Source of the DNA: Hyphomicrobiaceae bacterium
GTDB taxonomy: Bacteria > Pseudomonadota > Alphaproteobacteria > Rhizobiales > Hyphomicrobiaceae
DNA length: 61,041 nt
Reading direction: 5' to 3'
NCBI GenBank assembly: GCA_050245975.1
Contig: JBFWWW010000001.1
Span: forward strand, 1 to 61,041
Under the pieces are notes generated by a model. It did not search any database. It was not told where the DNA came from and saw only the letters and a list, made by a program, of their open reading frames with translations. Of the stretch, positions 7,281-53,996 are shown one piece after another; position 1 is the stretch's first letter; the number at the start of each line of letters is the position of its first letter. The translations under genes were made by a program, and so were the position numbers.

Positions 7281-7352
7281 ATGCCCAGGCGGAGGAGGCA
7301 TCCTCCTCCGCCTGCATCGACCGTAAGGACCGCGAACGTCTGGAGTGGCGTC

Positions 7353-8018: not shown

Positions 8019-8029
8019 CGCGGCACACC

Positions 8030-21966: not shown

Positions 21967-22151
21967 TTAGATGCCCATTGATCTGCATTGCAGAACAACC
22001 AGATTGATTTTGTAGTTCACTATAGACGCAGTGTATGCTCACCTACATAAACTTCAAGACGTCATAGTTCTGCATAGCAGACCGCCTATCAAACCAATGG
22101 TCCGCATTAGAACGGGCACAGAAAAGATCCAACATACGGAGGAGTTCGTTC

Positions 22152-23417
22152 ATGGCATCTCACAACAAAACTCGTCGCGAGTTCTTGAAGGATGGCGCCC
22201 TCGCAACTGGGGCAATGGGACTTTCACTGGGAGGGCTAGTGGCTCCCGCGGTCGGTCAGAGTCAATTTTCGGAATGGGGATGGCCGCAGCCGCGCGGCCA
22301 GGTTTTGGCCAAGTCTGTGGATTGGCTCAAGTCGAAGGGCTGGTGGCCGCTGCAGGTCGCGTGGAATCCGCTTTGGTCGGATGGGAACATCGTTCTATTC
22401 GCGATGCAGCACTACAAGCTCCTGCAGGCTCGAGGAATTGAAGCTCAGTTTCCGGAGTTTTTGATCGCAGGCCTCATGAACGAGGTGTTCGTGCCGGCAA
22501 AAATCCAGGTTGCACAAGCCGGCTCCCTGGGACTTCTCAGGATCATCGAGCTCAAAGTTCCCGTCGTCGCTCCGATTTGCTATCCGGCTCAGCGCCAGGG
22601 CTTCATGGTTCCCATTGACTCCCCCTTGAAAGGTTTGGCTGATCTCAAGGGTCAGAAGGTCCTCGGTCGCCCAGCTCAATGGGGCACTGCAATCGGAAGC
22701 GCCGTACACACCGGGCTCTTGGTTGCGGCAAAAGTTCTCGGACTCCGGGAAGGCGAGGATTTCCAGATAAAAAATATGTCCGCGGCAGACATGATGGCGA
22801 TGCCGAAGGGTGTTGATCTTGTGTGCATGTGGGAACCGAATATTACGTTGATGACCGAGTTCAGAAAGAACGCGCGCATCCTCGAGACGATGGCCGCGTA
22901 CACAATTTTTAACGGATACTCCTATCTTCGCGGCGAAATCGAAGAGAATGCTCCCGACGTTGTGCAAGCTTACGTCGACGCATTCATCGAGGCGCGCCTC
23001 CTTGTGAAGCTTAAGAGCCAGGAAGTGCTTGCCGCATTTGCTGCACACGACAGTCAGCGCGGGCGCGACCCAAAGTTGATCGCACGGGATGCAGAGACAC
23101 ACGTGCTGAACCCAAAACCCACGCTTAGCTATCCGTTTGAAGATACGCGAGGGTTCTGGGCTCCGCTCGAAACGTACCAGGCCAATATAATGACCGATGC
23201 CAATGTCCTGAAACGTCGCTTTACCGAAAACGACTTCAAGTCGGCATTGCGAACGAAATACCAGGCGGACACTTTCAGTCGCTTGGGTTGGTCGGTGCCA
23301 AAGCAACCGACATTCCTGCCAGCCAACTGGACAGGCGAGGTCGGGAAGCCCCCTACCCTCCATCCGGGCTTGAGGTTGCTGGAAAGCAGGAATTTCCTGA
23401 ACCAGGCGATCTCGTAA
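22152..23417 (+). CDS. NitT/TauT-family (NMT1-like) ABC substrate-binding protein with Tat signal
   Basis: N-terminal twin-arginine motif TRREFLKDGALATGAMG. RBS GGAG upstream. Followed by the cognate permease and ATPase. Confidence 0.7.
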   Translation: MASHNKTRREFLKDGALATGAMGLSLGGLVAPAVGQSQFSEWGWPQPRGQVLAKSVDWLKSKGWWPLQVAWNPLWSDGNIVLFAMQHYKLLQARGIEAQFPEFLIAGLMNEVFVPAKIQVAQAGSLGLLRIIELKVPVVAPICYPAQRQGFMVPIDSPLKGLADLKGQKVLGRPAQWGTAIGSAVHTGLLVAAKVLGLREGEDFQIKNMSAADMMAMPKGVDLVCMWEPNITLMTEFRKNARILETMAAYTIFNGYSYLRGEIEENAPDVVQAYVDAFIEARLLVKLKSQEVLAAFAAHDSQRGRDPKLIARDAETHVLNPKPTLSYPFEDTRGFWAPLETYQANIMTDANVLKRRFTENDFKSALRTKYQADTFSRLGWSVPKQPTFLPANWTGEVGKPPTLHPGLRLLESRNFLNQAIS

Positions 23418-23536
23418 GGGACTGGAGCTTCGGGGGCAAAACCTTCAAGGCTTAGCACAGTGTGGATCACGCGTTTTGCAGCTGGCGCAATACGTGGTCC
23501 ACGCACCACCTTCACTCTCCGGAGTTCCAAACTCTG

Positions 23537-24346
23537 ATGGCCGATATTGGCGAACCCAAAGCCGACGCGGGATTGGGACAGTCCCGGCTGGCCGATGCGG
23601 CCTATTCTTTAGCGCGCTACATTCCGCTACTTTTGTTTTTTCTTGCGTGGGAGATCGTCGCCCGCAACTTGCCGCTCTTGCAAAACATGCTCCCGCCACC
23701 GTCTGAGGTTCTCTATGGAGGGTGGCAGCTGCTCAGACAAGGAACACTGCAACGCGATATCGTTGCCAGTCTCAATCGCGTAGGCGTTGCACTCGCCTTT
23801 GCATCTTTGATAGGGTTTCCGCTCGGCGCAGCTTTAGGGGCGTCCGCTCGATTTGCGTGGTTCGCCGAGCCTATTGTCAATTTTTTCCGGCCCATACCTC
23901 CGTTAGCCTGGATTCCCCTATCGATCCTCTGGTTCGGGATTGGCGACGCTCAGAACGAGTTCATTATATTTCTGGCAGCCTTCTTTCCGATCGTCCTGAA
24001 CACGATGGAGGGAGTTCGGGACGTCGATAGGCGGCTTATCCGTGCCGCATCCACATTGGGTGCCGGCCGGGTCGCCATCGCACTTACAGTGATCCTGCCG
24101 GCGGCGCTCCCCTCAATGTTCGTCGGGTTCAGGATTGGCACCGGCATAGCCTGGATGGCGCTGGTTGCAGGAGAACTCGTGGCAGCGACATCAGGTCTCG
24201 GTTTCCTGATAAGCCAGGGGCGTTTGCTGTACCGAAGTGATTTCATCGTTGTCGGGATGTTGATGATTGGGTTGATCGGGCTCTTGCTCGATGCGCTCAT
24301 TCGTTTCCTGCAGGCTCGCGTGACCCCGTGGAGGGCAGATCAATGA
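23537..24346 (+). CDS. NitT/TauT-family ABC transporter permease
   Basis: ATG 23537 (MADIGEPK). Polytopic, with an EAA-like loop (EGVRDVDRRLIRAASTLGAG). Confidence 0.8.
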   Translation: MADIGEPKADAGLGQSRLADAAYSLARYIPLLLFFLAWEIVARNLPLLQNMLPPPSEVLYGGWQLLRQGTLQRDIVASLNRVGVALAFASLIGFPLGAALGASARFAWFAEPIVNFFRPIPPLAWIPLSILWFGIGDAQNEFIIFLAAFFPIVLNTMEGVRDVDRRLIRAASTLGAGRVAIALTVILPAALPSMFVGFRIGTGIAWMALVAGELVAATSGLGFLISQGRLLYRSDFIVVGMLMIGLIGLLLDALIRFLQARVTPWRADQ

Positions 24347-25116
24347 CGGGCCTTGTATCCGCTGTTGACGTTCGTGGTGTAACAAAGCTTTTTGGAACAG
24401 GCGGAGCTGCGACGCGAGCCTTAGATAATGTTTCGCTCAGCATTGGGCCTGATGAATTTGTATGCATCATCGGGCCAAGCGGGTGCGGAAAGACGACGCT
24501 CCTAAATATGGTGGCGGGGTTTGACTTTCCGACTGGTGGCTCAGTGAATGCGTTTGGGCATAAAATTACCGGCCCCGGTTCCGACCGCACGATGATGTTT
24601 CAGGACTATGCGTTATTTCCCTGGCTGACGGTCACAGGAAATATCGAGTACGGGCTCAAGCGCAATGGAACGCCCAAGGCGCACCGCAACGAGATCGTTC
24701 GTCACTACATTGAACTTATTGATCTCGGCGGATTCGAGGACAAATATCCCCATCAGCTGTCGGGCGGAATGCGCCAACGCGTGGCGCTCGCCCGGGCGCT
24801 GGCTGTCAAACCTGCAATGCTGTTGATGGACGAGCCGTTCGCTGCTCTTGATTCATTCACACGCGAGCGCATGCAGGATGAACTGGTTCGTGTGTGGCAA
24901 ACCGAGCGCAAGGCTGTTCTATTTATTACTCACAGCATCGACGAAGCACTCAAGTTGGCCGACCGGCTTGTGATCATGTCGGCCCGTCCCGGTCGCATCA
25001 CTGAAACGATCCGGATCCAGGCAGATCGTCCGCGGAACACCTTGAGCGCCGAGAATGTTGCTTTGGCGCAGAAGATCCGGGATCTCCTCCAGCAAGGAGG
25101 CAATGGTCAGTGCTAG
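24343..25116 (+). CDS. NitT/TauT-family ABC transporter ATP-binding protein
   Basis: Walker A GPSGCGKTT, signature LSGGMRQR, Walker B LLMDEPF. ATGA overlap with the permease stop. Confidence 0.85.
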   Translation: MTGLVSAVDVRGVTKLFGTGGAATRALDNVSLSIGPDEFVCIIGPSGCGKTTLLNMVAGFDFPTGGSVNAFGHKITGPGSDRTMMFQDYALFPWLTVTGNIEYGLKRNGTPKAHRNEIVRHYIELIDLGGFEDKYPHQLSGGMRQRVALARALAVKPAMLLMDEPFAALDSFTRERMQDELVRVWQTERKAVLFITHSIDEALKLADRLVIMSARPGRITETIRIQADRPRNTLSAENVALAQKIRDLLQQGGNGQC

Positions 25117-25161
25117 CTGGTCCAGCCAATTGGCCCGCACATAACTCAAAATGGACGCTGC

Positions 25162-26793
25162 ATGACCGCTGATGAATACGACTTCATAATCGTGGGAGCC
25201 GGTTCGGCGGGAAGCGTACTTGCGACGCGGCTGGCAGCAAGCAAGCGCTTCCGCGTCCTTCTCCTGGAGGCTGGAGGCAGCGACGCCAGATTGTGGGTGC
25301 GTATTCCACTCGGCATTGGCCGAATTCTCAACGACAGCCGCTACATCTGGGAAGCGCAAACCGAACCTGAAGTCGAACTGCACGGCAATCGCATTAGCCT
25401 GCAAAGCGGTCGACTGATTGGCGGCTCCAGTTCCGTAAACGGCATGGTTGTTGTCCGCGGCCACCCGAAAAAATATGACGCTTGGCGCGACATGGGCTGT
25501 CCAGGTTGGGGATGGGAAGACGTCCGTCCCTATTTCAAGCGACTCGAGGACTGCTCGTTCGGAAATCCCGAGCTGCGCGGACGAGGCGGACCCGTTTCAG
25601 TTACGCGCCTTGGTGGCGATCCTCTGGCCGATGCCTTCCTGCAAGCCAGCGTCGCAACCGGGATTGATCGGACCGAAGATTACAATGACGAGCAAGCGGA
25701 GGGAGCTGCACACATCCAGCTAAACACGCGCAACGGAATTCGTTGCAGTACAGGTTTGGCTTACCTGAAACCCGCGCGCGCATTGCCCAATTTTCACGTC
25801 ACCACCAATGCCATAGCCGAGCGGGTTGTCTTTGACGGCAGGCGAGCCGTTGGAGTGTCATTCATTCAAGGTGGGAGGCGCACGAATGCGCGTGCCCGCT
25901 GTGAAGTCGTTCTTTGTGCGGGCTCGATCCGCTCTCCACAACTTCTGGAACTCTCGGGTGTGGGACAACCCGACAGACTGTGCCGTCTAGGCATCGATGT
26001 TGTGTCCGAGCTGTCGGGGGTCGGTGAAAACCTCCAAGACCATCTCATGCCGAGGTTCTGCTACGAATCCTAAATTGCTACTTTAATTACGATGGTGACC
26101 AGCCGATCGCGGCTTGCTCGCGAACTTGCTCGATATCTATTATTCAGAGCTGGAGCTGTTGCTACGCCCTCCCTTACGGCCCTCGCATATGTCCGAAGCC
26201 ATCCGGGTGTTGAGTGTCCTGATATCCGTCTTCAACTTGGGTTGACGTCCGGCACCAGCCGCCTTGCTGCCAACAAGACCGGCGGCCTCGATAGTTTTCC
26301 GGGATTCCATATCGGGGGCTATCTCCTCTATCCCGAATCCAGAGGCAGTGTTCACAGCCGGTCTACGGACCCGACCCAAGCGCCCGAAATTCGGGTGAAC
26401 TATTTGTCAAACAAACTGGATCGCGACGTCACCGTCCGGGTGCTGCGAATGATCCGCCAGATCGCATCAATGCGCCCGCTCAGCGATTTTATCGTCCGCG
26501 AAGTGCGGCCTGGAAGTGCCGCGCAGGACGATCAGGAGCTCCTGGATTTCGCCCGTCGAACAGGATCAACATGCTGGCATCCCACCGGCACCTGCAAAAT
26601 GGGCAACGGACCTGATGCTGTGGTTGACAGCAGCTGCAAGGTTCATGGTCTTTTTGGGTTGCGTGTGATCGATGCTTCGGTTGTTCCGCGCATGGTTGCA
26701 AGCAACACTAATTTTCCCACCATGATGATCGCCGAGAAGATGGCTGACGCAATCCAAAGGGAATTTTGTACGGGCGACGCGAAGGCAAACTAG
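25162..26793 (+). pseudogene. GMC-family (choline-dehydrogenase-like) FAD oxidoreductase interrupted by an in-frame TAA
   Basis: The N-terminal ORF has the FAD motif [18 protein letters not shown]. The C-terminal ORF has HPTGTCKMG and VIDASVVP. Both ORFs (25162.. and 26092..) are in the same frame and are separated only by the TAA at 26071..26073. Confidence 0.8.
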
Positions 26794-26810
26794 GTTCTGT
26801 GAGGTGCGAC

Positions 26811-27797
26811 GTGGCGCTGCGAACGCGGCTTACCAGGAAGTTGGGTATTCAGCATCCGATTGTATTGGCGCCGATGCGCGGAATGGCGGGCGGCGCACTG
26901 GCGCGAGCTGTCAGTCGTGCCGGCGCATTCGGCATGGTTGGCGTAGGCGGATGGCATCATTCTGATTCAGACATCATGGATCGCGAGCTTCCGCTGGTCC
27001 ATGGTGAGAAGTTTGGGATTGGTCTGATTACGTGGGCTCTTGCGAATAGGCCTCACTTACTTGCGGAGGCCATCGAGCGGAGTCCAACGGCAATTATGTT
27101 CTCGTTCGGGAGCCCAGCGCCTTATCTTTCAAAGGTGCGGGATGCCGGCATCCTATCAATATGTCAGGTTCAGACTGTTCGCATGGCTCGCGAAGCTTTG
27201 GATCAAGGAGCCGACATCATTGTCGCGCAGGGAGCCGAAGCTGGCGGACACGGGGGATCTCGCTCGACATTTCCACTTGTGCCGGCGATTGCGGATGCAG
27301 TGGCCCGAGAAAACTCAGATTCAATCGTCGTTGCCGCGGGAGGGATCGCTGATGGCCGGGGCCTCGCAGCGGCTCTTATGCTTGGAGCGGAAGGCGTGCT
27401 GATGGGCACGAGATTTGCCGCAGCTTTGGAGTGCAGAATTGACGCTTTCACTCAATCCATCATGGTTTCCGCGGACGGCGACGAAACGCTTCGTTCCAAC
27501 GTCTTTGATGTGATCCGAGAGGCGAACTGGCCGAAGGAATTTACGGGCCGCGCAGTTGCAAACGGGATGAGCCATCAGTGGGAAAGGTGCCAGGAAAAAT
27601 TGGAAAGAGACGAGGCGGCGAAGGAGCGCTTCCGTCAAGCATTTGAGAAGCGAGATAGAGAGTACTGGACCGTTTGGGCTGGCGAAGCGCTGGACCTGAT
27701 CCACTCCATCCCCTCAGCCGCAAGCATAGTCGAGAATACGATCAGGGAAGCGGAAGCTACCATTGCGGAACGTTGCCGCGCCATAGAACGGCTTTAG
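26811..27797 (+). CDS. nitronate monooxygenase (NMO / 2-nitropropane dioxygenase-like, FMN TIM barrel)
   Basis: LGIQHPIVLAPM, IVAQGAEAGGH and VVAAGGIADGRG are canonical NMO motifs. Start assigned to GTG 26811, after GAGGTG. Confidence 0.8.
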   Translation: MALRTRLTRKLGIQHPIVLAPMRGMAGGALARAVSRAGAFGMVGVGGWHHSDSDIMDRELPLVHGEKFGIGLITWALANRPHLLAEAIERSPTAIMFSFGSPAPYLSKVRDAGILSICQVQTVRMAREALDQGADIIVAQGAEAGGHGGSRSTFPLVPAIADAVARENSDSIVVAAGGIADGRGLAAALMLGAEGVLMGTRFAAALECRIDAFTQSIMVSADGDETLRSNVFDVIREANWPKEFTGRAVANGMSHQWERCQEKLERDEAAKERFRQAFEKRDREYWTVWAGEALDLIHSIPSAASIVENTIREAEATIAERCRAIERL

Positions 27798-27980
27798 TCT
27801 GCTCCGAATTGAGGCCTGAAGAAGCGGACTTGGACGCGGACACCGGACAGCGCCGTAGGGCGGAGACGTCTGCTATCTCTGCCAAGCAATCGTATAGGGA
27901 CCAGATGCTGATACGGGGCTGGGTCAGAGAGCATGGTCGATGCTAAAAACACCAAGCTGTACAATAAGATATACTGAAAT

Positions 27981-28001
27981 ATTGGCGGAGACGGAGGGAT
28001 T
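27981..28001. repeat. attL: 21-bp direct repeat of the tRNA-Ser(GCT) 3' end
   Basis: ATTGGCGGAGACGGAGGGATT at 27981..28001 is identical to 53902..53922, which covers the 3' acceptor/T-arm end of the tRNA gene. Confidence 0.85.
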
Positions 28002-40131: not shown

Positions 40132-40163
40132 GCGCCTTGCAAATCTGCAGGGGCTCGCATCCG

Positions 40164-41000
40164 ATGGCCGCCGAAAGGCGACCCATGCGACGGCCACTCT
40201 CTACCAACAGCATCGACCCGGCACTGCTAGACGCGATCATCGCGGCCGTCCGTGACGGCGTGCGGCAAGAGCTTGCGGCCGGGCCCAACACCCTCAACGG
40301 TGGTCCACAGCCCCAGCTGATGCGGCTGCAGGACGCGATGAAGGTGCTCGCGGTCAGCCGGTCAGGGATCTATCGCCTGTTCGGCTCCGGCGACCTCACG
40401 CCGGTCAAGCGCGGTCGCTCGACCTTGATCGCTCGCGCTGAGATCGAAGCACATGTCGCGCGCCTCAGAAATCCGAACGGCGGCGTGCCCACAGGCCCCT
40501 TTGCCCGCTGTGCCGAATCGCTACGTGCCCTCGGCCTCGCCATTATACCGTGCGATGCCGCATCCAAGCGCCCTCTGGTCGGCGGATTTACGAAGTGGCG
40601 TGCGTCACCAGCCGCTGTGACCGTCGCCAACTGGGCCCGCAGGTTTCCGGCCGCGAACCTCGGCATTGCATGCGGCCTCAGCGGTGTGGTCGTTGTAGAC
40701 ATCGACGACGTGACCATGATCGATGCCGCCATCTTGCACTTCGGCCCCACCCCATTACGCGTGCGCACACCGTCCGGCGGCGCGCATCTTTACTATCGGA
40801 ACGCGACAGGGCAGCGGAGCCGTAACCTGCGTTCCAGCCACGGTGCGGCCATTGATCTTAAGGCCGTCGGCGGCTTCGTCCTCGTGCCGCCTTCCGTTGG
40901 CGCAGAAGGGGCGCGCTACGAATTCGAAAGCGGCGATTTCACCCTGCTCGACAGCGTTCCGCCGTTCGATCCTGCGGCGCTCGCACGGCCATTCCCATGA
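40164..41000 (+). CDS. AlpA/excisionase-type HTH fused to a bifunctional primase-polymerase (PrimPol) domain
   Basis: LMRLQDAMKVLAVSRSGIYRLFGSGDLTPVKRGRSTL (MerR/AlpA-like HTH) is followed by LAIIPC..KRP, GVVVVDIDD, TPSGGAHLYY and GGFVLVPPS (PrimPol motifs). Start ATG 40164 or 40185. Confidence 0.75.
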   Translation: MAAERRPMRRPLSTNSIDPALLDAIIAAVRDGVRQELAAGPNTLNGGPQPQLMRLQDAMKVLAVSRSGIYRLFGSGDLTPVKRGRSTLIARAEIEAHVARLRNPNGGVPTGPFARCAESLRALGLAIIPCDAASKRPLVGGFTKWRASPAAVTVANWARRFPAANLGIACGLSGVVVVDIDDVTMIDAAILHFGPTPLRVRTPSGGAHLYYRNATGQRSRNLRSSHGAAIDLKAVGGFVLVPPSVGAEGARYEFESGDFTLLDSVPPFDPAALARPFP

Positions 41001-41572
41001 GCGTGGGCCGCATTCCCGAAGGCCGGCGCAACGATGCTTTGTTCGCGCACATGCTCCGCGTTGCCAGAACAGCAGAGAGCATGGACGCGCTCCTTCAGGC
41101 CGCGCGCGCCTTTAATCGCGACTACCTGGAGCCGCCGCTGTTGGAGGACGAGGTCGAGCGGACTGCGGGCAGCGCGTGGCGTTATCAACGGGAGGGACGG
41201 AACTTCGTCGGCCAGGGGGGAGTGGTGCTCATCACGCATGAGGAACTGGACGATCTGCTCCGGCAGCGTCATGGCGCCGAAGCGGTTGCGCTCCTGGCCC
41301 TTCTCCGGCGCCAGCACGGTGCGAGGCAGCAGCCGTTCGCCGTCTCCTGCGACGCCATGGCCGCCGCGCGCACCATCGCCTGTTGGCCGAACCCGCGCAA
41401 ATACCGCCGCGCCCGAAACCTGCTGCATCGGCGCGGCCACCTGGAGCTGGTGTCGCCGTCCGGCACGAACCCGGACGGAACGTTCCGGCCCGCACAGTGG
41501 CGGCATCCATCGGCAAAATTTACCCGGAATAGAACCAACATCCCCGCCCCCTGCCCCCGAGGCAGAAGATGA
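40997..41572 (+). CDS. primase C-terminal (PriCT-1-like) domain protein
   Basis: IPEGRRNDALFAHMLRVAR...DEVERTAGSAWRY is the PriCT-1 pattern. ATGA overlap with the PrimPol stop. Confidence 0.65.
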   Translation: MSVGRIPEGRRNDALFAHMLRVARTAESMDALLQAARAFNRDYLEPPLLEDEVERTAGSAWRYQREGRNFVGQGGVVLITHEELDDLLRQRHGAEAVALLALLRRQHGARQQPFAVSCDAMAAARTIACWPNPRKYRRARNLLHRRGHLELVSPSGTNPDGTFRPAQWRHPSAKFTRNRTNIPAPCPRGRR

Positions 41573-42618
41573 ACGAGCGCGCGCGTGAGCATCCAAGACG
41601 CGGAGCCCCTATGGCCGTCGTGACGCCGGAACGCATCATCGTGAGGCTGGCGGCGGTGGCGTCTGCAGCATTGCTCATCATCAGCATCGCCATCACGTTC
41701 GAGGTCGGCAAGTCGTTCGGCCGCACGGACGTCGAGGCGCAGCTTTACGGCGCCGCCTGCGCGTTCGCCGATGCGCTCAAGGCGCTGTTGTTCACACTGT
41801 CGGCCTCTGCCTTCCGCAAACGCCGCCGCACCATGGCCATCACAGGGTTCGCGCTGTTCCTGTTGCTGACGACGTTTTCGTTCTCGTCGACAGTCAGCTT
41901 CGGGCTCGCGGCCCGCACTTTCGCTGGCGACGTACAGATCCTTCAGGCCGAACAGAACAAGTCGGCGATCTCCGCCTTGCGTGACGATCAGGGTGAGCTG
42001 GCGCGCATCCGCAACCGACTCCGCGAACCTGACCTGTCCATCCGCGAGCGTCGCGAACTCGAACGGCGTAATCATGATCTCGCCACCGCTGTTGCCGACC
42101 GCCAGCGTCAGCTTGCCCTTGCACCCCGCATTATCACAGCCACCACACAGTCGGACGCACTTGCCCGCATGCTAGGCGTCGCACCCGAAACCGCCACGGT
42201 CGGACTGGCCATGCTGCTCGCGCTGGCGATGGACCTGGGGCCAGGCATCGGTCTGGCGATTGCGACCGCGATGCTCGGTGCGGACAAGCCTTCGCGGCGG
42301 CCGGCGAAGGTTCGGGCCCTGCGGTCCGACCAGAAGCAGCAGCCGAAGGTCCGGCCGAATGCCGAACGGTCCAAGGTCGAAAGGTCCGTCAGCAATTTCC
42401 TGCACGAGCGCACGGTCAAGAGCGGAACTACTGCCGCCACTGAACTGTTCAGCGCGCATCTGACCTACTGCGCAAGCCAGGGCTTGCCGTCCATCACCCA
42501 GCGCGCCTTCGGCGACGCCATGCGGCAACTCGGATACGAAAAGGACCGGCGCACGGCATCAGGACGCGTGCGCTATCTGGGGCTGACGCTGGTCGAAGAA
42601 GCGCGCACCGCAGCCTGA
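41569..42618 (+). CDS. membrane / coiled-coil protein with a C-terminal soluble domain, unknown function
   Basis: Hydrophobic segments (AAVASAALLIISIAITF, ITGFALFLLLTTFSF, LAMLLALAMDLGPGIGLAIATAML), a central Arg/Glu-rich helical stretch and a conserved C-terminus (...FGDAMRQLGYEKDRRTASGRVRYLGL). ATGA-coupled to the PriCT gene. Confidence 0.6.
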   Translation: MNERAREHPRRGAPMAVVTPERIIVRLAAVASAALLIISIAITFEVGKSFGRTDVEAQLYGAACAFADALKALLFTLSASAFRKRRRTMAITGFALFLLLTTFSFSSTVSFGLAARTFAGDVQILQAEQNKSAISALRDDQGELARIRNRLREPDLSIRERRELERRNHDLATAVADRQRQLALAPRIITATTQSDALARMLGVAPETATVGLAMLLALAMDLGPGIGLAIATAMLGADKPSRRPAKVRALRSDQKQQPKVRPNAERSKVERSVSNFLHERTVKSGTTAATELFSAHLTYCASQGLPSITQRAFGDAMRQLGYEKDRRTASGRVRYLGLTLVEEARTAA

Positions 42619-42872
42619 CCGGCCGTCGCGAGCCGCAGGGTGAACGGGGTGTGAAGGTTCGGCCGAATGTTCGACCCGATGACCATTTGACGAACCGTGC
42701 GCCGCGAATGTTCGGGAGCCTTGAAGGTTCAGGAGCAGGAACCAGAAGGATCAAGGATTTTCAAAACGCTGAACCTTCGGGCAGGGCGGTCGCAAGATCC
42801 AGGCTGATCGCCGCGCACGTCGCTCCTTACAGGCCCGGTCGTGGTTTAGACTTCACCAACAGGAGATCCCTC

Positions 42873-43643
42873 GTGACGACACCCCCAACGCCCGCCCACA
42901 AGGAAATTCCACAGTCAGAGAAAGCCCGCCGCGGGCCCGAACCCCAACCGAAGAGGGCCGGCCGGCCGCGGAAGAAAACCACAGGACCCGCCGTCTGCCT
43001 CGTGCTCGACAAGTCGGGGTCGATGGAAGGGATGGCAGGCCAAGCGCTGACGGCGGTCAACAACTATATCTCGGCGGCGAAGGCCGATAAGAACCTACGC
43101 AAGGGCACGCTCTCGATCCTGCTCTTCGACAGCGCTTCGCTCGAGTGGATACGCAAGACCGTACCGATGGCCAAGATCGAGATCGTGACCGACAAGGAGT
43201 ACATTCCGCACGGGCTCACGCCGCTCTATGATGCCATCGGCGCCGGCATTGATCATTTGGGCGATGCGGAAAAGGCCGTGCTGGTCATTATGACGGACGG
43301 GCACGAGAACGACAGCAAGACCTACAACTTGAAGCAGATACAGGACCGTATCGAGGCGGCCAAAGCCAAGGGCTGGCTGGTCCTGTTCCTTGGCGCCAAT
43401 CTGTCCGTTGCTTGTCAGGGCGCGGTGATGGGTATGGGGCCGAACTCGGTCGCCGCTTATGCCGGCGCGCCTGGTTTGCGCGCCTCAGGCATCGCGCTGT
43501 GCCAAACCCTGAGCAACTACGCGGCCGCACGATCCTTTGACGAACAGCTTGTCGCGTCCAGTGCTGGATGGACGGCACAAGCCCGTGCGCTGATGAGCGA
43601 CGCGAACCGGCCCGTGCGTTCGAGGGGCCGCGACCACAAGTAA
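42873..43643 (+). CDS. von Willebrand factor type A (vWA) domain protein
   Basis: MIDAS motif LVLDKSGSM, later TPLYDAIG and VIMTDGHEN. Basic N-terminal GRPRKK stretch. GTG 42873 follows AGGAGA. Confidence 0.75.
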   Translation: MTTPPTPAHKEIPQSEKARRGPEPQPKRAGRPRKKTTGPAVCLVLDKSGSMEGMAGQALTAVNNYISAAKADKNLRKGTLSILLFDSASLEWIRKTVPMAKIEIVTDKEYIPHGLTPLYDAIGAGIDHLGDAEKAVLVIMTDGHENDSKTYNLKQIQDRIEAAKAKGWLVLFLGANLSVACQGAVMGMGPNSVAAYAGAPGLRASGIALCQTLSNYAAARSFDEQLVASSAGWTAQARALMSDANRPVRSRGRDHK

Positions 43644-45725: not shown

Positions 45726-47363
45726 CTACGCTGCTGCTTCTCTCGCCATCGTTCCCAGAAGCGCGGGCGCAAACATCTGATGAAAGCGGACGCTAGACTC
45801 TGGAACCAGTTCGGAATCTTCAACTGTTGGCGTGTCGGTGTGCGCGTACCTAATTTTATCTTCTGGTGATTTGCGAACGCCTATGGCCCCGATCCGATAA
45901 AGCACCCGAACCATGCGCCTCACCAAATTGAACTCTGAGTTCTCGCTCGACAACAGATACGCTTCAGCAAACGAGTAGAATGGGTCGCGGCGGTTTTGAT
46001 CCTCAATGAGGATTGCTTGCACTAGATCTTGCAGCTCTGGCCCCTTGGACAGCACCTCAAGCGTCGTTGGCTGCGGGAATTTCGCGAAGTACTCGATTGC
46101 TAGGGGCATGCAGGGATAGGTCGTTGCCCACTCGTCCTTCAACGCGCCATATCTTCCGATGGAATATTCCCGCTCTACCTCCCTGACAATGCTTGCACTG
46201 ATTTCTTTCTTCCCCTCCGCCGCTTGCAAGCAGAGATTTACATAGGCGAGAAAATCGCGAGGTCGATGGAGCGTGCGGTCAACTATGAAACCAGCCAAAG
46301 TTTGATTCCCAATCTTGCGCGGGAAAAGGTCAGCGAAGGTCAGCTTGACGCCCCGCAGCTTCCTATTCGACATATGTTGAAGGCGCTCAGACACCATGTG
46401 CATCAGCAGAACTGGCGTCCACTTCAGTTCAACCGCGTAATCGTCATGCTTCTCTCGCTGAAAACCAGCGTCTTTAGTCTCTTGCAGAACTCGCTCAAGA
46501 ACATCTGTTCGCAACGCAACAACAATTTTTAGCTTCCGAATTTTCCGAAATCCACGAAGCGTCTCGATGAGCGCTCGGATCATGCGGAACCTGATTTTGT
46601 CGTCGACCCACTGCTCGTCCAATCGATCAATCAGGATGAAGTGCTTAACATTCTTGTCTTCATCATCAGCCAATAGTCCGACGAGGTTGGACAGCTGCGA
46701 TAATTGCTCAGCCGTTACTATCTTTCTAAATCGAACTCCGATCTCTTTCTTTTCTTCTGTCGTCAGATCTCGTGCGGAACTGGCCTTGCTTTCGTTGTAG
46801 CCAATCGCGCCTTCAAGTTTCTTCGTTATCCTCTGCATTACCTCCTTCATGTTCTCATCGATTGCGATCCAAAATTTACCTTCGTACTGCTGAAGGTAGG
46901 TCAACGCGGCGGCGCGCCTTTCGTCTTTTGAGATCATCTTCTCAAGACGCGAGAGAAACACCAACCACTTTTTTTGATCTTTGACGTTATAGCGAAGCCG
47001 TATGTACTCCACGCAAAGTACGTGCTTCCAAATCACCTGGAAGAGCAGGTCGATATCCGCGCCAACTTCATTGAGATACGTGAGCACAGTCGAGTTGGAG
47101 ATGTACTCCATCGATATGCTTATCGGATCGATCTCAGAGATTTTTCCGAAGTTATTCTGTATGCCGTTCAGGATGGCGGTCTTCCCGGCCCCGGTACGGC
47201 CGAGTGCGATCATTCTGGGCGAATCGAAATTCGTGAGGTCGTCGTAGGCAGGCGTGCGGATGAAGCACGACTGAAGGAATTCATCGTCCGCTTCCGCCGA
47301 GTTCTTGCCTATCGATAAGCCCGGCGGAAGAGTGTCTGCTGGGCCGGATGGAGAATCCGCCAT
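45726..47363 (-). CDS. stand-alone P-loop NTPase (545 aa), unknown function, AT-rich
   Basis: Walker A GRTGAGKT, Walker B HFILIDRLDEQW, downstream KIVVALRTDV and a RPRDFLAYVN motif, plus a long alpha-helical C-terminal half. Codon usage is visibly AT-richer than all flanking genes. Confidence 0.8.
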   Translation of the reverse strand: MADSPSGPADTLPPGLSIGKNSAEADDEFLQSCFIRTPAYDDLTNFDSPRMIALGRTGAGKTAILNGIQNNFGKISEIDPISISMEYISNSTVLTYLNEVGADIDLLFQVIWKHVLCVEYIRLRYNVKDQKKWLVFLSRLEKMISKDERRAAALTYLQQYEGKFWIAIDENMKEVMQRITKKLEGAIGYNESKASSARDLTTEEKKEIGVRFRKIVTAEQLSQLSNLVGLLADDEDKNVKHFILIDRLDEQWVDDKIRFRMIRALIETLRGFRKIRKLKIVVALRTDVLERVLQETKDAGFQREKHDDYAVELKWTPVLLMHMVSERLQHMSNRKLRGVKLTFADLFPRKIGNQTLAGFIVDRTLHRPRDFLAYVNLCLQAAEGKKEISASIVREVEREYSIGRYGALKDEWATTYPCMPLAIEYFAKFPQPTTLEVLSKGPELQDLVQAILIEDQNRRDPFYSFAEAYLLSSENSEFNLVRRMVRVLYRIGAIGVRKSPEDKIRYAHTDTPTVEDSELVPESSVRFHQMFAPALLGTMAREAAA

Positions 47364-47403
47364 CTCGAACCTCTCCTCAGTATCAGTTAAGCAAATTAGC
47401 TCA

Positions 47404-47720
47404 CTAAGAGAGTAGCAAAGAGGACGTTTGCACCAAAGCCGACGTAACTACTATGCTGCCCGTATCCACAAAGAAGTCGAGCGGGACTGGTTTGCGGGCG
47501 ACACGGGCACGGGCTGCCGACAGGCCGGCAACGCTCCCGGATGATGCCCCGCTCGAACTCCGCCAATGCAGCAAAGTATGTAAACGCCAGCCGCCTGACA
47601 GGAAGTCGGTCGGTATCGGTGGATTCCGGTCCCTTACGTTGGGCGCGCAGAGGAGTGGCTTGCAAAGAGCGTAAGCAGACCGGCGAGCCTTGCATTGGAC
47701 ATCCACCGGCGGCAATGGTG
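47404..47720 (-). pseudogene. serine recombinase (resolvase) remnant
   Basis: Fragments FAALAEFERGIIRER and, in a second frame, AGLSAARARVARKP. There is no catalytic N-terminal domain and the frames are broken. Confidence 0.5.
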
Positions 47721-48092
47721 GCTCGCGCGGCGGCCACGACTAAGTCAGTCTGGCGGCAGAGGAAGGCGGGGATCTGAACCAAATTCGCTACAGCCGCTAG
47801 GCGCTAGAGGGCAATCCTTTCATAATCGGCTAGTTCGTAGCGCATGCGCCGAGTGCCCAGTTTGGAAGCTTGAAAATCACAGGGGCCTGGCCAGACGCAA
47901 CGCTTTCGGACACGCCTCGATTGGACGCTTCCGGGTAGAAGCGGGCATCATGCAGCCGACAATCGCTGCTGAAACCGTCGAAAATGACCCGTCACGACTA
48001 TTCATAATTCGTTCCATGCCCGTCTGGTTCTCATCTCATTACGGTCGGGCTGCACGTGAAAGGACTAGGCACCATAGCTCAGCGCCGGTCGC

Positions 48093-48640
48093 CTATTCCG
48101 GCGTATTTACGATCAATCTCATCCCCGCGTCGAATGCGTCGAGTTTCCGCAGTTCACCGTGGCGGCGGTCCCATATGCCGGTAGCCAAATCATGCTCGAT
48201 CGCAGCCACGACCCGGTCGACGACCTCGGGCTGCATACGCGCAAATCCAGATGTCCCCTGGCGTGCCCGAGCATCCAACACACGGTCGGGGTGCGCCCAG
48301 AACGACATCAGCGACCAATCAGGGGTGTCCCGGCGCACAGGCAGTACCACAACGTGGGTGTTCCCCCCAACCAAGTGGCGAACTGCTCGATCGGCGGAAA
48401 GATCTTTCGATCAAGCTCCGCTACTTCGGGAAGGTACTCAGCCATCAGCCACATCGCCCCGTGGACCTCGGCATCGGCTGTCAAGACAACGATGGGTCCG
48501 GTCGCAACACGGCGCATCTCGCGAACCCCTCGCTCCTGCTCTTGGTCCCAGTGATGGACCGTGAGCACTGCCATGGCAGCGACGGACGGGCATCGCGCGG
48601 CACCGTTGTGCATCGACGGTGGTCAGGCCTAGACCCCACG
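48093..48640 (-). pseudogene. class I SAM-dependent methyltransferase remnant (frameshifted, motif I region lost)
   Basis: ORF 48308..48613 (AVLTVHHWDQEQERGVREMRRVATGPIVVLT) and ORF 48093..48374 (the C-terminal part) lie in different frames. Confidence 0.5.
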
Positions 48641-48870: not shown

Positions 48871-49458
48871 TCAGTATTTGGAGTCGTCGAGCACGCTGCG
48901 CGCTTCCGGCCAACCCGCCGCGATCGCAGCCTGTATGTGCTCAATTAGCTCAGTCTTGGATGGTTGATTGCTTAAGCTGCCGGCGTTGATGCTATGCGTA
49001 TGGATGCCTGCCCTAAGTTCAGCGGGGGAAAGCTTCTCTAGCTCAATCCGCCGTTGCAACGGGTTAGCAAGTCGCAACACATCTTCGAGCGGGCGCCCAG
49101 GAGCTTTGGTTTTTCCTTTAGGCGCTTTCACCGCTTTCGGCGTCGGCTGCGCCTTTCCCGAAATAAGCAGGCTCAAATGACCGCGCAGAGCAGATGCCCC
49201 AAGGTCTTTGAGACCCGGCAGATTCGGATCGAGCTTCTTGGCTAGGGCGGGAATGTCCTTGTCAACTTGCCGCTTCAGGTACCAGACGATGAAATCGTCA
49301 CCTGCTGCCTTCTGTACTTCCTGATAGCGTTGCAGTGCAGCGCCTTTCAACGCGGTGGACTTTAGCCACTTTGCGATCGTGTCTTGAAACGCTGTGTTAA
49401 GGTCGGGCTTCGTGCGGATGATGTCCGCGAGGGCCTTGGCTAGCTGGGATCCGTCCAT
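48871..49458 (-). CDS. 195-aa protein with Lys/Pro-rich linker and C-terminal HeH/Rho-N/SAP-like motif
   Basis: ATG 49458 (MDGSQLAKAL) is preceded by GAGGGGGG. The C-terminal LSPAELRAGIHTHSINAGSLSNQPSKTELIEHIQAAI resembles helix-extension-helix DNA/RNA-binding motifs. Overlaps the ParA-like ORF by 62 nt. Confidence 0.55.
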   Translation of the reverse strand: MDGSQLAKALADIIRTKPDLNTAFQDTIAKWLKSTALKGAALQRYQEVQKAAGDDFIVWYLKRQVDKDIPALAKKLDPNLPGLKDLGASALRGHLSLLISGKAQPTPKAVKAPKGKTKAPGRPLEDVLRLANPLQRRIELEKLSPAELRAGIHTHSINAGSLSNQPSKTELIEHIQAAIAAGWPEARSVLDDSKY

Positions 49459-50380
49459 CTCTACCCCCCTCAGGTTTAAAGACCGTCCATGCCTCGGTGA
49501 CCAGCTTCTCGACGTGCTCATCCACGCCATCATATAGGCGATCGAACAGCGTCCTGTTACGAAGCTGATTGAGTCGACGCTGAATGGCACCTAGTTTCCG
49601 CATATTCCATTCGCGACGGTCCATCGCTTTCTGGAAGCCATCCATATAAGGATAGCCGCACTTCAGCACTTGGTAGCGCGGCTCGAGCTTGTTCTGTTCG
49701 CCACGCACGGCCTTCTCGAATTCGAGCGACGTCTTCGTTCGTCCGGTCATGGTCAAGAACACATGCGCGCGCTCACAGGCATCGCCAATTTCGAGTTCGT
49801 CTTCCATGTATTTCACGAAGGCGGAGAGCCCCTGCGTCCCCAGATTATTCGGCGCCGTCGGCAAAATGACTGTGTCGCTCAGGCCGAGGGCTGCTTCTGT
49901 GAAGATCGAAAAGCCCGGGGGACAGTCGAACAGGATCAAGTCGAAGAGGGACCTCTGCTCATCCAGCAGACCTTGCATTGTGTCGCGTGCAAAATTTAGC
50001 GCCGCATCTACCGTCTGCTTGGGCTTTACCAACAGTCGTCGCTCAAAACTGCGTAGCTCATAGTCTCCAGACATCAGGGAGACAGTGCTGGCAGGCGAAA
50101 AGTCCATCGCATCCTTCAGCACATACGCATCCGCGACGGTATTTGGGTGCGACAGACGCTTTTCAAGAAAGTGCTGTAGGCTGGTGCCGGTCCGCCAAGG
50201 AACGCTGTCTTTCGGCACGGCGCCAGTGAGAAGCGTGCTGGCATTGATCTGCGGATCAAGATCGATCACCAGCACGCGCTTGCTTTTCAGGGCCGCCGTA
50301 CCTTCCGCTAACGACAACGTCAGCGTAGTTTTTCCGACACCGCCCTTCATGCTCGCGATCGCCGCAACATGAGCACGCAT
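49397..50380 (-). CDS. ParA/MinD-family P-loop ATPase with a C-terminal extension
   Basis: Deviant Walker A SMKGGVGKTT, then VLVIDLDPQ and LILFDCPPG. Start ATG 50380, 2 nt after the upstream gene's stop. Confidence 0.8.
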   Translation of the reverse strand: MRAHVAAIASMKGGVGKTTLTLSLAEGTAALKSKRVLVIDLDPQINASTLLTGAVPKDSVPWRTGTSLQHFLEKRLSHPNTVADAYVLKDAMDFSPASTVSLMSGDYELRSFERRLLVKPKQTVDAALNFARDTMQGLLDEQRSLFDLILFDCPPGFSIFTEAALGLSDTVILPTAPNNLGTQGLSAFVKYMEDELEIGDACERAHVFLTMTGRTKTSLEFEKAVRGEQNKLEPRYQVLKCGYPYMDGFQKAMDRREWNMRKLGAIQRRLNQLRNRTLFDRLYDGVDEHVEKLVTEAWTVFKPEGGRDGRIPASQGPRGHHPHEARP

Positions 50381-50382
50381 AC

Positions 50383-50934
50383 TCAAAGCTCCTTGCCAAG
50401 CTGCGTCTGTACCCAATCTAAAAGATCCGGAAGGCGGTCTTCCAAGAAATAGTCTACCGCACGGGGAGCTGGATCGAACCGCTCACTGAACAACGCAATG
50501 TCGTAGTCAGTCTCAGGCGCAGCTGATTTCAGACGAATGACACCGATGCCGTGCTTTTGCGCGTGGTAGCGCACATCGGAGAGACGGTGCTCCCATGTCT
50601 CATCACTAGGACAGTGCACTACAACACTAGAGTAGTTCACATACCGCGTGTGCGCGAGAGCCTGGTGCACGGAGCTGACGTCGAAGCCGACGTCTGTCTT
50701 CAGTTCAAAACCGTACAGCTCCAATTCAGGCACTGCGCGTGACCGGTAGCGGCGAACGCAGCCCAAGATCACATCGGGACGCGACCATTGGCCGACAGCT
50801 GGACCGCCACGGGCAGTGTTTTCTACACGCCAAACCGGCGGCACGCCGGCAGGCTGCAACAAATCTCGTCCAAGCCTTGTCTTGAGGAGAACCGTGAACG
50901 GCTCTTCCAGCTGCGATTCCAATACGCCACCCAC
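50383..50934 (-). CDS. PD-(D/E)xK nuclease-superfamily-like protein (183 aa)
   Basis: RPDVIL ... ELYGFELK ... VHQAL has the spacing of the PD-(D/E)xK core. GTG start at 50934. An in-frame TAG lies in the ACTAGT target site just upstream, so the ORF is not interrupted by the IS. Confidence 0.5.
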   Translation of the reverse strand: MGGVLESQLEEPFTVLLKTRLGRDLLQPAGVPPVWRVENTARGGPAVGQWSRPDVILGCVRRYRSRAVPELELYGFELKTDVGFDVSSVHQALAHTRYVNYSSVVVHCPSDETWEHRLSDVRYHAQKHGIGVIRLKSAAPETDYDIALFSERFDPAPRAVDYFLEDRLPDLLDWVQTQLGKEL

Positions 50935-51002: not shown

Positions 51003-52048
51003 TGTGAACTTTCAGGAGGTTGTTCATTCGGTCCGGACCGGGGAAGCTGAAGTTGCGAGACACCAACTTCACACCGGGGGACCGAATGAACGTCCACAAG
51101 AATGCCTCTCTGACGCCTAGAGGTCGAGAGGACATGGTGCTGGCGGTCATGCGAGGCGGCCTGAGCCAGGCCGAAACCGCGCGAGCCTTCAACACCAGCC
51201 CGAAGACCGTCGCCAAATGGGTCCGCCGCTTCTGCCATGGCGGCGTCCAGGCCCTCCGTGACCGCTCGTCACGGCCCCATTCCCTGCCGAGCCAGACCCC
51301 GCTTGCCGTCTGCGATACCGTCGAGGCTCTGCGGCGACAGCGCCGCACGCAAGCTGCGATCGCGGCCGAACTCCGCCTGTCGCCGGCAACCGTCAGCCGC
51401 ATCCTCAAGCGCCGCGGCCTCAGCCTGCTCTCCGCACTCGAGCCCGCCACGCCACGCCCGCGCTATGAACGCGCTACGCCCGGCGAGATCATCCACATCG
51501 ACATCAAAAAACTCGGCCGCTCAATGCCGTCGGCCATCGCATCACCGGCAACCGAGCCCGTCAGAGCAATCAGCGCCAGAACGGCACTGCGCCCGGCTGG
51601 GAATACGTCCACGTCGCCGTCGACGACCACTCCCGCGTCGCCTTCTCGCAGATCAAGCCTAGCGAGAAGAAGGAGCCCGCCGTCGAGCACCTGATCGCCG
51701 CCGTCGCCTACTACCGGCGCCTCGGCATCGAAGTCGAGCGCGTCATGACCGACAACGGACCCTGCTATCAGTCGAAGCTCTGGGCGAAGACGTGCCGCAG
51801 GCTCGGCATCAAGCACCTGCGCACCAAGCCCTATACGCCGCAGACCAACGGCAAGGCCGAGAGATTCATCCAGACCGCCTTGCGCGAATGGGCCTACGCC
51901 ACCGCCTTCGAAACGTCAGACCAGCGACGCGACGAGCTGCCGCGATGGTTGCACCGATACAACTGGCACAGGCCCCATGCCAGCCTCGGCCAGAGGCCGC
52001 CAATCAGCCGTCTCCGCCTGACCAGGAACAACCTCCTGAGGAACCACA
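51003..52048 (+). mobile_element. IS481-family insertion sequence (1046 bp) with 6-bp target duplication ACTAGT
   Basis: Imperfect terminal inverted repeats TGTGAACTTTCAGGAGGTTGTTC / TGTGGTTCCTCAGGAGGTTGTTC. ACTAGT occurs at 50997..51002 and 52049..52054. The transposase stop TAG lies in the duplicated CTAG, as is typical for IS481. Confidence 0.85.
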
Positions 52049-52053
52049 ACTAG
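51086..52053 (+). pseudogene. IS481-family DDE transposase, reading frame broken
   Basis: The N-terminal frame (MNVHKNASLTPRGRE...IHIDIKKLGR) and the C-terminal frame (NAVGHRITGNR...VHVAVDDHSRVAF...TDNGPCY...TNGKAERF...) are offset by -1. The switch lies between the A6 tract (51506..51511) and about 51522. Confidence 0.8.
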
Positions 52054-52402: not shown

Positions 52403-53761
52403 TCACAAAATTTCAATAATATAGGGGTCCGTGCTTATATTCAGTCTGGGGTGCCGGGCAAGATTCGAACCCTCGTCCCGGAGGCAAGAGCAGCTAGCAT
52501 CCTTTCGGGACTTGATCTCCGCGGCCTCATTGTATCCACCGTAAACCGTTTCGACCGTCCCTTTGACGGCTTCACCGCCACGTGCGTGCTCGACCCACTG
52601 CTGCATCAGCCGCCGCCGCTCATCGAGAAAGTCCGACCGCAGGTAGGCCGCCCGCACCTTGTCTGGGATGACGTGCGCGAGCGCTGCCTCCGAAACCTCA
52701 TCCCGGACCTTGGCGACCTCGGCAGCCCACATCTTGAAGCTCGACCGGAAGCCATGGACCGTTGCCCGATCCGCGATGTCCATGTCGCGCAGCGCCTTGG
52801 TCAACGTCATGTCCGACAGCGGCACGTCATCATCGGTGCCAGGGAACACGAGATCGGATTTGCGGCCCAGGACGCGCACACGGGCGAGGACATCAACGCA
52901 TGGTGTAGGGAGTGGCACGACGTGCGGCCGCTTGGCCTTCATGCGTTCAGCCGAAATGGCCCAGAGAGCCGCCTTCTCGTCGATCTCGTCCCAGCGGGCG
53001 CCGCGCGTCTCGCCGCTGCGGCTGGCCGTCAGAATGAGCCACTCCAGCGCCAGCCGCGCCATGGTCGGCGGCAGGGCACGCAGCCGTACAACAAACGCCG
53101 GCACGTCGGCATAGGGCAGCGACCGGTGATGCCGGACAGCACGCGACCGGCCGCCAAGCTCCTGCGCGACACCGATGCAAGGCGAGGCCTGCTCGCGCGC
53201 ACCACGCAAGATCGCGGACTTGAACACGGCTTCGATGCGCTGGAGAACGCGGTGCGCCGTCTCCCGCTTGTCGAACCAGATGGGCGCCAAGATATCGATG
53301 ATCTCGTGTGGCTGGATCAGTGAGACAGCACGGCTGCCGATATGCGGGAAGACGTAGGTCTCCATGGTCGCGCGCCACTGCGCGCTGTGCTTGGGATTGG
53401 CGAGCGTCTGCGCCTTCAATGCGAAGAACGCCTCGAAGGCCTGCCGGAACGTCATGGCCCGCAGATTGCGCGCCTTGTCTTCAGCAACAAGATCGCGCCC
53501 TTCCTTGGCGGCGGACCGGATGGCGTCTGCGCGGCGCCGTGCGGCTTCGAGGGTCACGGCCGGATATGAGCCGAGCCCGAACTCACGGCGCTTGCCACGG
53601 ATCGTGATGCGCATGACCCAGCGTCGGTGTCTGGCGTCCGTCACAACGAAACGCAAGCCGCCACCATCCTCATGGGTCCCGGCTGTCCGGGTTGCCCGGA
53701 TCCTGGCGGAACTCAACCGATACAGACCGCGAACGCCAGCCACGCTGATCCCCCAATCCAT
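52403..53761 (-). CDS. int: P4-type tyrosine integrase (Arm-binding DUF4102-like N-terminus)
   Basis: EDGGGLRFVV..RRWVMRITIRGKRREFGLGSYPAVTLEAARRRA (arm-binding domain), and the catalytic region with HGFRSSF and LAHV...AYLRSD. Adjacent to the tRNA. Start ATG 53761 or GTG 53743. Confidence 0.85.
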   Translation of the reverse strand: MDWGISVAGVRGLYRLSSARIRATRTAGTHEDGGGLRFVVTDARHRRWVMRITIRGKRREFGLGSYPAVTLEAARRRADAIRSAAKEGRDLVAEDKARNLRAMTFRQAFEAFFALKAQTLANPKHSAQWRATMETYVFPHIGSRAVSLIQPHEIIDILAPIWFDKRETAHRVLQRIEAVFKSAILRGAREQASPCIGVAQELGGRSRAVRHHRSLPYADVPAFVVRLRALPPTMARLALEWLILTASRSGETRGARWDEIDEKAALWAISAERMKAKRPHVVPLPTPCVDVLARVRVLGRKSDLVFPGTDDDVPLSDMTLTKALRDMDIADRATVHGFRSSFKMWAAEVAKVRDEVSEAALAHVIPDKVRAAYLRSDFLDERRRLMQQWVEHARGGEAVKGTVETVYGGYNEAAEIKSRKDASCSCLRDEGSNLARHPRLNISTDPYIIEIL

Positions 53762-53769
53762 CCCCCAAT
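53748..53769. repeat. pair of ATCCCCCAAT motifs 12 bp apart (putative arm-type sites, attR side)
   Basis: ATCCCCCAAT at 53748 and 53760. Same motif, spacing and orientation as 28048/28060. Confidence 0.5.
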
Positions 53770-53903
53770 CGGAATGCGATGCCAGGGTGCACCGAGGAGC
53801 GTCAGAACACAAGTCGAACGCAGCAAACAGTTGAAATCAAGCGGCTATTTGGAACAATCCGGAGCATCGAGGCACGACCGGACACATTGCGATTTTTGGG
53901 GAT

Positions 53904-53996
53904 TGGCGGAGACGGAGGGATTCGAACCCTCGATACGCCTTTAGAGCGTATAACGGTTTAGCAAACCGCCGCCTTCAGCCACTCGGCCACGTCTCC
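53904..53996 (-). tRNA. tRNA-Ser (anticodon GCT), class II with long variable arm, encoded CCA
   Basis: The minus strand reads GGAGACGTGGCCGAGTGGCTGAAGGCGGCGGTTTGCTAAACCGT-[variable arm TATACGCTCTAAAGGCGTAT]-CGAGGGTTCGAATCCCTCCGTCTCCGCCA. The 7-bp acceptor stem pairs, the T-loop is GTTCGAATC and the anticodon loop is TTGCTAA. Confidence 0.9.

Follow-up and report, generated by a model that had tools for sequence, protein, structure and literature searches.

The 61,041-nucleotide stretch of Hyphomicrobiaceae DNA analysed here (contig JBFWWW010000001.1, positions 1 to 61,041; the window) carries on its minus strand, at 48871-50934, a translationally coupled operon of three genes, here called g1, g2 and g3. 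The product of g2 is unambiguously an ATPase of the ParA/MinD class, g1 encodes a putative PD-(D/E)xK-type protein, and g3 a small protein whose C-terminus may form a SAP/HeH-like motif. The three-gene arrangement is far beyond chance: wherever a related locus among those examined has room for it, the genes stand in the same order. The triad reads as a self-contained, horizontally mobile module. By the sequence comparisons made it lies outside every described partition, toxin-antitoxin or defence family that could be tested, in agreement with the original prediction, which was made from the letters of the window: neither g1 nor g3 finds a match in Pfam (for g3 at E<=1), NCBIfam, PADLOC, PHROGs or PDB sequences. 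The reading we favour, with somewhat less than even confidence, is that the triad is a ParA-licensed nuclease defence module acting against foreign DNA, i.e. phages and other mobile elements.

All three open reading frames (ORFs) of the triad are intact in the window. The first gene, g1 (50383-50934, minus strand, 183 aa, taken from the ORF list), begins at a GTG codon, and its TGA stop is separated by a 2-nt gap from the ATG at 50380 that opens g2 (49397-50380, minus strand, 327 aa, defined by its ORF and by Pfam and PHROG matches), the AAGGAG Shine-Dalgarno sequence of the latter lying within the g1 3' end. The ATPase gene terminates ...EARP-TAA, and g3 (48871-49458, minus strand, 195 aa) starts upstream of this stop at an ATG at 49458 preceded by GAGGGGGG, its first 62 nt (49397-49458) falling within the 3' end of the ATPase gene. 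This start is backed both by the Shine-Dalgarno sequence and by the conserved N-terminus of the homologues, M-x-G-[SA]-Q-L-A; across the 62-nt overlap the ATPase tail is poorly conserved and the g3 N-terminus is conserved. Three tightly packed minus-strand ORFs with exactly this gap and this overlap had been predicted, and both coordinates and junction sequences agree. The GC content of the triad region (~0.58) is lower than that of the flanking host DNA (0.63-0.66), which argues for a foreign origin. A promoter and terminator scan returned nothing informative.

That the three genes might be neighbours in the window only, a doubt attached to the original prediction, is countered by their synteny in other genomes. 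In a first subfamily, g1, the ParA gene and g3 are adjacent and in the same order in 10 of 10 non-redundant loci (the window, L001, L003, L006, L009, L014, L015, L017, L018 and L019). The closer members also share the 62-nt overlap, as read from the gene calls of L001/L002, L003/L004, L006/L007, L015/L016, L017, L018 and L019/L020. A second subfamily, with a short g1 ~30-40% identical to that of the window (a range taken from its A9 members), is represented by 35 loci in a metagenome scan. Here the ParA gene immediately follows g1 in all 27 loci with downstream sequence, which form 19 non-redundant groups, and a conserved SAP-like protein of ~122 aa then follows ParA in every group but the divergent L054, whose relatives L052 and L053 end at a contig edge. 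The only genes shared between the contexts in which triads are found are the three themselves.

The way in which a DNA-binding module is distributed over the first and third proteins suggests that the products of the triad act as a single complex. Long, winged-helix forms of g1 are usually encoded alone (L010-L013, L050, L055) and were seen in Frankia, in Arthrobacter, in Proteobacteria and Nannocystaceae metagenome-assembled genomes (MAGs), and in L050 and L055. Where g1 has no winged helix the SAP/HeH-like motif is found on the third protein, and in L009 and L014, where a ParA-coupled g1 keeps its winged helix, the g3 protein is without the HeH domain. Since the module thus sits on either g1 or g3, the two products would appear to work together. 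A 547-aa protein of L014 (P0030, 3059-4702) had the appearance of a g1-ParA fusion of the Rosetta-stone type; it is an artefact of a 1-nt frameshift in a metagenome contig, and the real g1 C-terminus and stop codon can be read at this locus in the +1 frame.

The assignment of g2 to the ParA class, made in the original prediction, is upheld by its motifs and by profile searches. All of 6 orthologues carry without change the deviant Walker A motif KGGVGKTT, the Walker A' motif DLDPQ and the Walker B motif FDCPPG, Pfam identifies AAA_31 (4e-29, 102 bits against a cutoff of 27) and CbiA (5e-14, 52.8 bits against a cutoff of 25.4), and PHROG 164 (ParA-like) matches at 5e-36. Against the NCBIfam partition equivalogs the protein reaches no curated cutoff, ParA_partition (NF041546) being matched at 1.4e-20 with 73.7 bits against the 180 called for, and its identity to plasmid ParAs is at most ~33%. 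The PADLOC candidate profile PDC-M28B also matches g2, at 2e-6, in an alignment confined to 40 residues around Walker A.

A bona fide ParA-class ATPase whose best profile matches are partition ATPases, followed by a small partner with the disordered basic region typical of ParA adaptors, raises the possibility that the triad is a three-component system for partition or positioning of the excised, replicating island. The ParA protein would be the motor, g3 a DNA-binding adaptor stimulating its ATPase, and g1 a site-specific binder or nicker at a centromere-like site. Such a role would suit the PrimPol replication module on the window island and the AAA_25 helicase-like gene in L019, as well as the resolvase often found near the triad, as in stability regions. 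The layout is indeed that of type I (Walker-type) ParA-ParB loci such as ParF-ParG and delta-omega, compact operons in which a deviant Walker A ATPase precedes a small, translationally coupled partner that includes a flexible, basic stretch. The triad differs from these loci in the strictly coupled upstream gene with its nuclease-type signature, in the low identity of its ATPase and in a partner that matches no ParB or ribbon-helix-helix (RHH) family in Pfam, NCBIfam or PHROG. Nor is it merely a plasmid par locus: no homologue of g1 or g3 was found among 72,556 plasmids (PLSDB), 50,697 phages (INPHARED) or in IMG/VR, although the plasmid result is weak evidence against partition because the family is rare overall. 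Its sites are scattered over chromosomes and islands, the long contigs that bear it are chromosome-sized with varied neighbourhoods, and many chromosomal triads have neither an integrase nor a replication gene less than 5 kb away. Beside five triads the repeats amount to short two-copy matches, with no iteron- or centromere-like arrays, a result that allows for a distant or degenerate site; the DNA upstream of the triads is not conserved. Finally, the invariant acidic and lysine residues (E/D/E/K) of g1 would favour catalysis over mere binding. A partition function therefore appears to us rather unlikely.

ParA-class ATPases also act with two or more accessory DNA-binding proteins, or in the assembly of DNA-processing complexes, in the three-component archaeal partition system AspA-ParB-ParA of pNOB8 and in VirC1-VirC2, to which a partition function of the triad would be analogous. 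In comparison the triad has a different gene order, g1 and g3 are not known to be homologous to AspA, ParB or VirC2, and g1 looks catalytic.

For g1 the original prediction of a PD-(D/E)xK nuclease stands as regards the signature and is probable, not confirmed, as regards the fold. The protein contains R52-P53-D54-VIL, E72-LYGF-E77-L-K79 and Q91-AL, together with an N-terminal E6. These residues correspond to the signature of PD-(D/E)xK active sites, in which helix 1 provides an acidic residue, strand 2 opens with (P)D and strand 3 holds (D/E)xK. Among 190 relatives E6, D54 and K79 are conserved in 100% and P53 and E77 in 99%, and position 91 is E or Q; as far as sequence goes, these invariant residues fit a PD-(D/E)xK site. 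Structural and profile comparisons did not extend the likeness. The AlphaFold2 model, built from a shallow alignment of 17 sequences, has a predicted local distance difference test score (pLDDT) of 49 and an order of secondary structure compatible with the alpha-beta-beta-beta-alpha-beta core of the PD-(D/E)xK fold, and Foldseek searches with this model gave scattered weak nuclease matches, none at E<=0.001 in the PDB (best E 0.03) and with a best E of 0.003 in BFVD. Searches of PDB sequences with the single sequence and with two profiles found nothing, and Pfam scans of 45 and of 101 relatives returned N-terminal winged-helix/HTH matches only, with no nuclease family (101 members, E<=1). Weighing the signature against these results, we think that g1 probably does have the nuclease fold.

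Two possible kinships were discarded. A relationship to the Holliday junction resolvase Hjc, suspected from the order E...R-x-G-G...PD...ExK, received a probability of 1.8% when the 190-sequence core was aligned by hhalign with four PDB-verified Hjc/Hje sequences, and kinship with Mrr, assessed against the genuine Mrr sequence of L017, a probability of 0.4%. The type IV restriction enzymes of the Mrr type do have the same layout of winged helix and E/D/ExK residues as the stand-alone long relatives of g1, but the Pfam models Mrr_cat and Mrr_N match none of the 101 members scanned, and the g1 of the window has no winged helix.

The close family of g1 is tiny, with 19 clusters among 5.8 billion and an occurrence in 2 of 185,579 GTDB species, and is set within a large uncharacterised one. 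When 1.84 billion cluster representatives were searched with a profile, 783 came out as relatives at E<=1e-3, and neither Pfam nor NCBIfam has a model for this wider family (P0026-P0273 are among its members), which numbers ~780 clusters at 50% identity. Most of these relatives are ~260 aa long and consist of an N-terminal winged helix or HTH followed by the g1-like domain, of which the window protein is a short form without the winged helix. Solo proteins with the winged helix and the E/PD/ExK residues occur in Actinobacteria (Frankia, Microbispora, Arthrobacter, Curtobacterium) and Proteobacteria. These solo forms invite the idea of an accessory factor in DNA repair or recombination, in which the winged-helix and nuclease family would comprise structure- or lesion-specific endonucleases and the ParA/g3-associated forms would be those that ParA delivers to the nucleoid. 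The solo long forms do lie in ordinary chromosomal settings of Actinobacteria and Proteobacteria, the Arthrobacter form, a protein that several species have in common, adjoining heme biosynthesis genes, and one solo form is near a UvrA-like giant gene. The triad forms, however, are rare, patchy and tied to mobile elements, have no link to known repair operons, and in the window have a GC content foreign to the host, so that we hold a repair function for the triad to be very improbable.

The third protein had been predicted to carry a helix-extension-helix (HeH) motif behind a Lys/Pro-rich linker. The linker and a helix-loop-helix are present in the AlphaFold2 model (pLDDT 79), which comprises a helical N-terminal domain (residues 1-100), a disordered Lys/Pro-rich stretch (~101-123), and two C-terminal helices (145-154 and 168-180) separated by a 13-residue loop; identification of the motif through Pfam failed, and hhalign gave a weak match at most. 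In that comparison residues 135-175 of g3 align with the SAP-like motif of the subfamily-2 third gene at E 9e-4 with a probability of 23%, and for one paralogous third-gene product the Pfam SAP model gives E 0.018, which does not reach its cutoff. A Foldseek search of the g3 model against the PDB found no significant structural neighbour. The geometry of the model and the profile evidence, weak as it is, hint that the g3 C-terminus is a SAP/HeH-like motif.

The favoured reading, a nuclease defence module, draws on the neighbourhoods of the triads. The original prediction had placed the operon in the kind of setting where mobile elements carry defence cargo, and defence genes are indeed frequent neighbours, known ones lying within ~5 kb in many loci. 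In a Hyphomicrobiaceae MAG (L015, 1522-7434) an operon of multi-ubiquitin and ThiF (E1) genes together with IetA/IetS stands directly upstream of the triad, Hhe is near the triad in L003, L017 has a KAP NTPase together with Mrr, L019 has an ABC-type ATPase, and the window has an Sll1717-family ATPase weakly similar to DS41. For subfamily 2, the 78 neighbours in 12 loci include PDC-M54B, a retron-type reverse transcriptase, LmuB and a type II methyltransferase. Searches of PADLOC-DB v2 and of the anti-phage families of NCBIfam r20 gave no match for g1 or g3 of either subfamily, and literature text searches found no description of such a module.

Two of these loci have further features of note. 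Downstream of the L015 triad is a 696-aa protein with a RelA_SpoT domain, in a region that is dense and defence-island-like. In L046 a 548-aa reverse-transcriptase-like gene with a YxDD motif (6899-8545, minus strand) lies ~65 nt past the end of the subfamily-2 triad, and its product is probably the source of the PADLOC retron-type matches.

Several observations weigh against a function in defence. The role is read entirely from genomic association, which makes the triad no more than a credible candidate, and the defence neighbours are listed as raw occurrences, uncorrected for background. Housekeeping genes are numerous among the subfamily-2 neighbours (enolase, histidine kinases, prephenate dehydratase). 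We know of no validated defence system that contains a ParA-class ATPase, no modification gene or other discriminator of self from non-self is evident, and the nuclease fold of g1 is left unconfirmed by its model, Foldseek, hhalign and Pfam. Moreover the related elements L001, L017 and L018 have the triad and a resolvase in common but differ in the genes that separate the two, a pattern also expected of a maintenance function in the backbone of an element. The distance from the triad to an intact resolvase is 3-5 kb in these three loci and in L019.

This constancy of triad and resolvase also speaks for an addiction or stabilisation module, in which g1 would be a DNA-cleaving toxin restrained by ParA, by g3 or by both, and loss of the module or the island would kill the cell. 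We consider it unlikely that the triad is such a module, or that it serves in this way to retain the island or a small chromosomal insert in the population. In favour of it, the operon is compact, translationally coupled and sporadic, and is found on integrative elements as well as singly, inserted among housekeeping genes; in the window it has stayed intact while neighbouring genes have decayed, and a MazF-like gene, recognised by eye, lies upstream of the triad in L009. On the other hand, antitoxins of the ParA class are not known, three conserved components including an active-looking ATPase exceed what neutralisation needs, and the g1 relatives that share these catalytic residues yet stand alone, with no partner, argue that the domain is not intrinsically lethal. 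An addiction function overlaps in any case with defence by abortive infection and is to that extent compatible with the favoured reading. The original prediction had offered an addiction/partition hybrid as an alternative, which may also apply.

For the favoured module we infer a physical complex, nuclease activity, ATP licensing and a role in defence, along the following lines. Proteins of the ParA class are established to bind DNA non-specifically as ATP-sandwich dimers, and the ParA-type ATPase of the triad would do likewise. The g3 protein would be the DNA tether of the complex through its basic linker and SAP/HeH-like motif, and its conserved N-terminal domain would contact ParA and regulate the ParA ATPase. 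The g1 protein, having lost the winged helix of its stand-alone relatives, would be the catalytic PD-(D/E)xK-type endonuclease and would reach DNA only via the ParA-g3 scaffold. We propose, tentatively and with some reserve, that a ParA/MinD-class ATPase, of a kind known for the transport and placement of cargo on the nucleoid, has here taken on DNA binding and licensing within a restriction-like immune nuclease, with the SAP/HeH protein as tether. Foreign and resident DNA might be told apart in such a system by nucleoid occupancy or DNA composition and not by modification.

By analogy, the proposed logic would be that of McrBC and other pairs of an NTPase with a PD-(D/E)xK protein, in which a nuclease without a DNA-binding domain of its own needs a DNA-binding NTPase; defence-island neighbourhoods are common to these pairs and the triad. 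The components differ: the NTPase of the triad is a SIMIBI-class ParA/MinD protein and not an AAA+ GTPase or ABC ATPase, there is a third, SAP/HeH-like subunit, g1 has no sequence relation to McrC, and the activity of the triad is a predicted one. A resemblance to the PADLOC candidate system PDC-M28 is confined to the ATPases. The window ParA matches PDC-M28B in its Walker A region only, a 545-aa ATPase encoded nearby, which other triads lack as a partner, matches PDC-M28C, and g1 and g3 have no PADLOC counterpart.

This 545-aa protein is a P-loop ATPase of the Sll1717 family, encoded by an intact gene at 45726-47363 on the minus strand (NCBIfam NF047389, 8e-64). It was rejected as a fourth component, as no homologue lies beside other triads. 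Its further matches are weak, to the DS41_1 anti-phage protein (2e-15, below the cutoff), to PDC-M28C (4e-5), and to PbeC and mad8, and it is probably a separate, single-gene defence candidate. The gene stands in the part of the island with the lowest GC (0.53), and the C-terminal 75 residues of the protein resemble a 104-aa ORF in L003 (7765-8079).

The setting of the triad in the window is that of an integrated element and agrees with the original description of a replication module and an integrase on either side, with an insertion sequence and decayed genes as the nearer flanks. A P4-type tyrosine integrase (52403-53812, minus strand; Pfam Arm-DNA-bind_3, Phage_int_M and Phage_integrase) adjoins tRNA-Ser(GCT) (53904-53996, minus strand), and a 21-nt perfect direct repeat of the tRNA-Ser 3' end, at 53902-53922 and 27981-28001, brackets 25.9 kb of DNA that is possibly an island. 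The bracketed DNA includes metabolic genes (beta-lactamase-like, AtuA, ABC transporter, TPP enzyme, aminotransferase) in addition to the part from PrimPol to the integrase; the mobile element proper may be only ~14 kb long (40-54 kb), or else the island may have a composite structure. Directly left of the distal att-like repeat is a low-GC stretch (22000-28000, 0.55-0.58 against ~0.63 elsewhere) that may be a second, adjacent island. The replication-type module (40137-43643, plus strand) begins with an HTH_17 and PrimPol protein of 287 aa (40137-41000, plus strand) and continues with two unannotated ORFs of 191 and 349 aa and a 330-aa protein with a weak VWA-domain match.

The interval from the integrase to g1 holds an IS481-like transposase, recognised by eye and split into two ORFs (51020-52053, plus strand), the second of which has KPYTPQTNGKAERF. 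This element ends ~85 nt upstream of g1, and the native promoter of the triad may in the window genome be missing, displaced or replaced by it. Downstream of g3, between the triad and the 545-aa ATPase, are the remains of two further genes, a decayed serine-recombinase-like fragment (47396-47782, minus strand) and frameshifted methyltransferase-like fragments (48093-48613, minus strand), both identified by reading the translations by eye; a AALAEFERGIIRER motif is recognisable in the translations of these decayed fragments (47396-48613).

Should the triad prove to be a defence system, it would bring in an NTPase class new to bacterial immunity and be the first defence system with a SIMIBI-class ATPase at its core, and ParA-type proteins would gain a role beyond segregation and positioning. 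It would also give a function to two families that Pfam, NCBIfam and PADLOC do not cover, the nuclease-like g1 proteins and the SAP-like third subunits. The exchange seen among g1 forms, in which those with a winged helix are usually solo and those without it are accompanied by ParA and a SAP/HeH protein, provides a hypothesis for how the complex is built. If instead the triad stabilises the islands that carry it, it would represent a new kind of three-component maintenance system.

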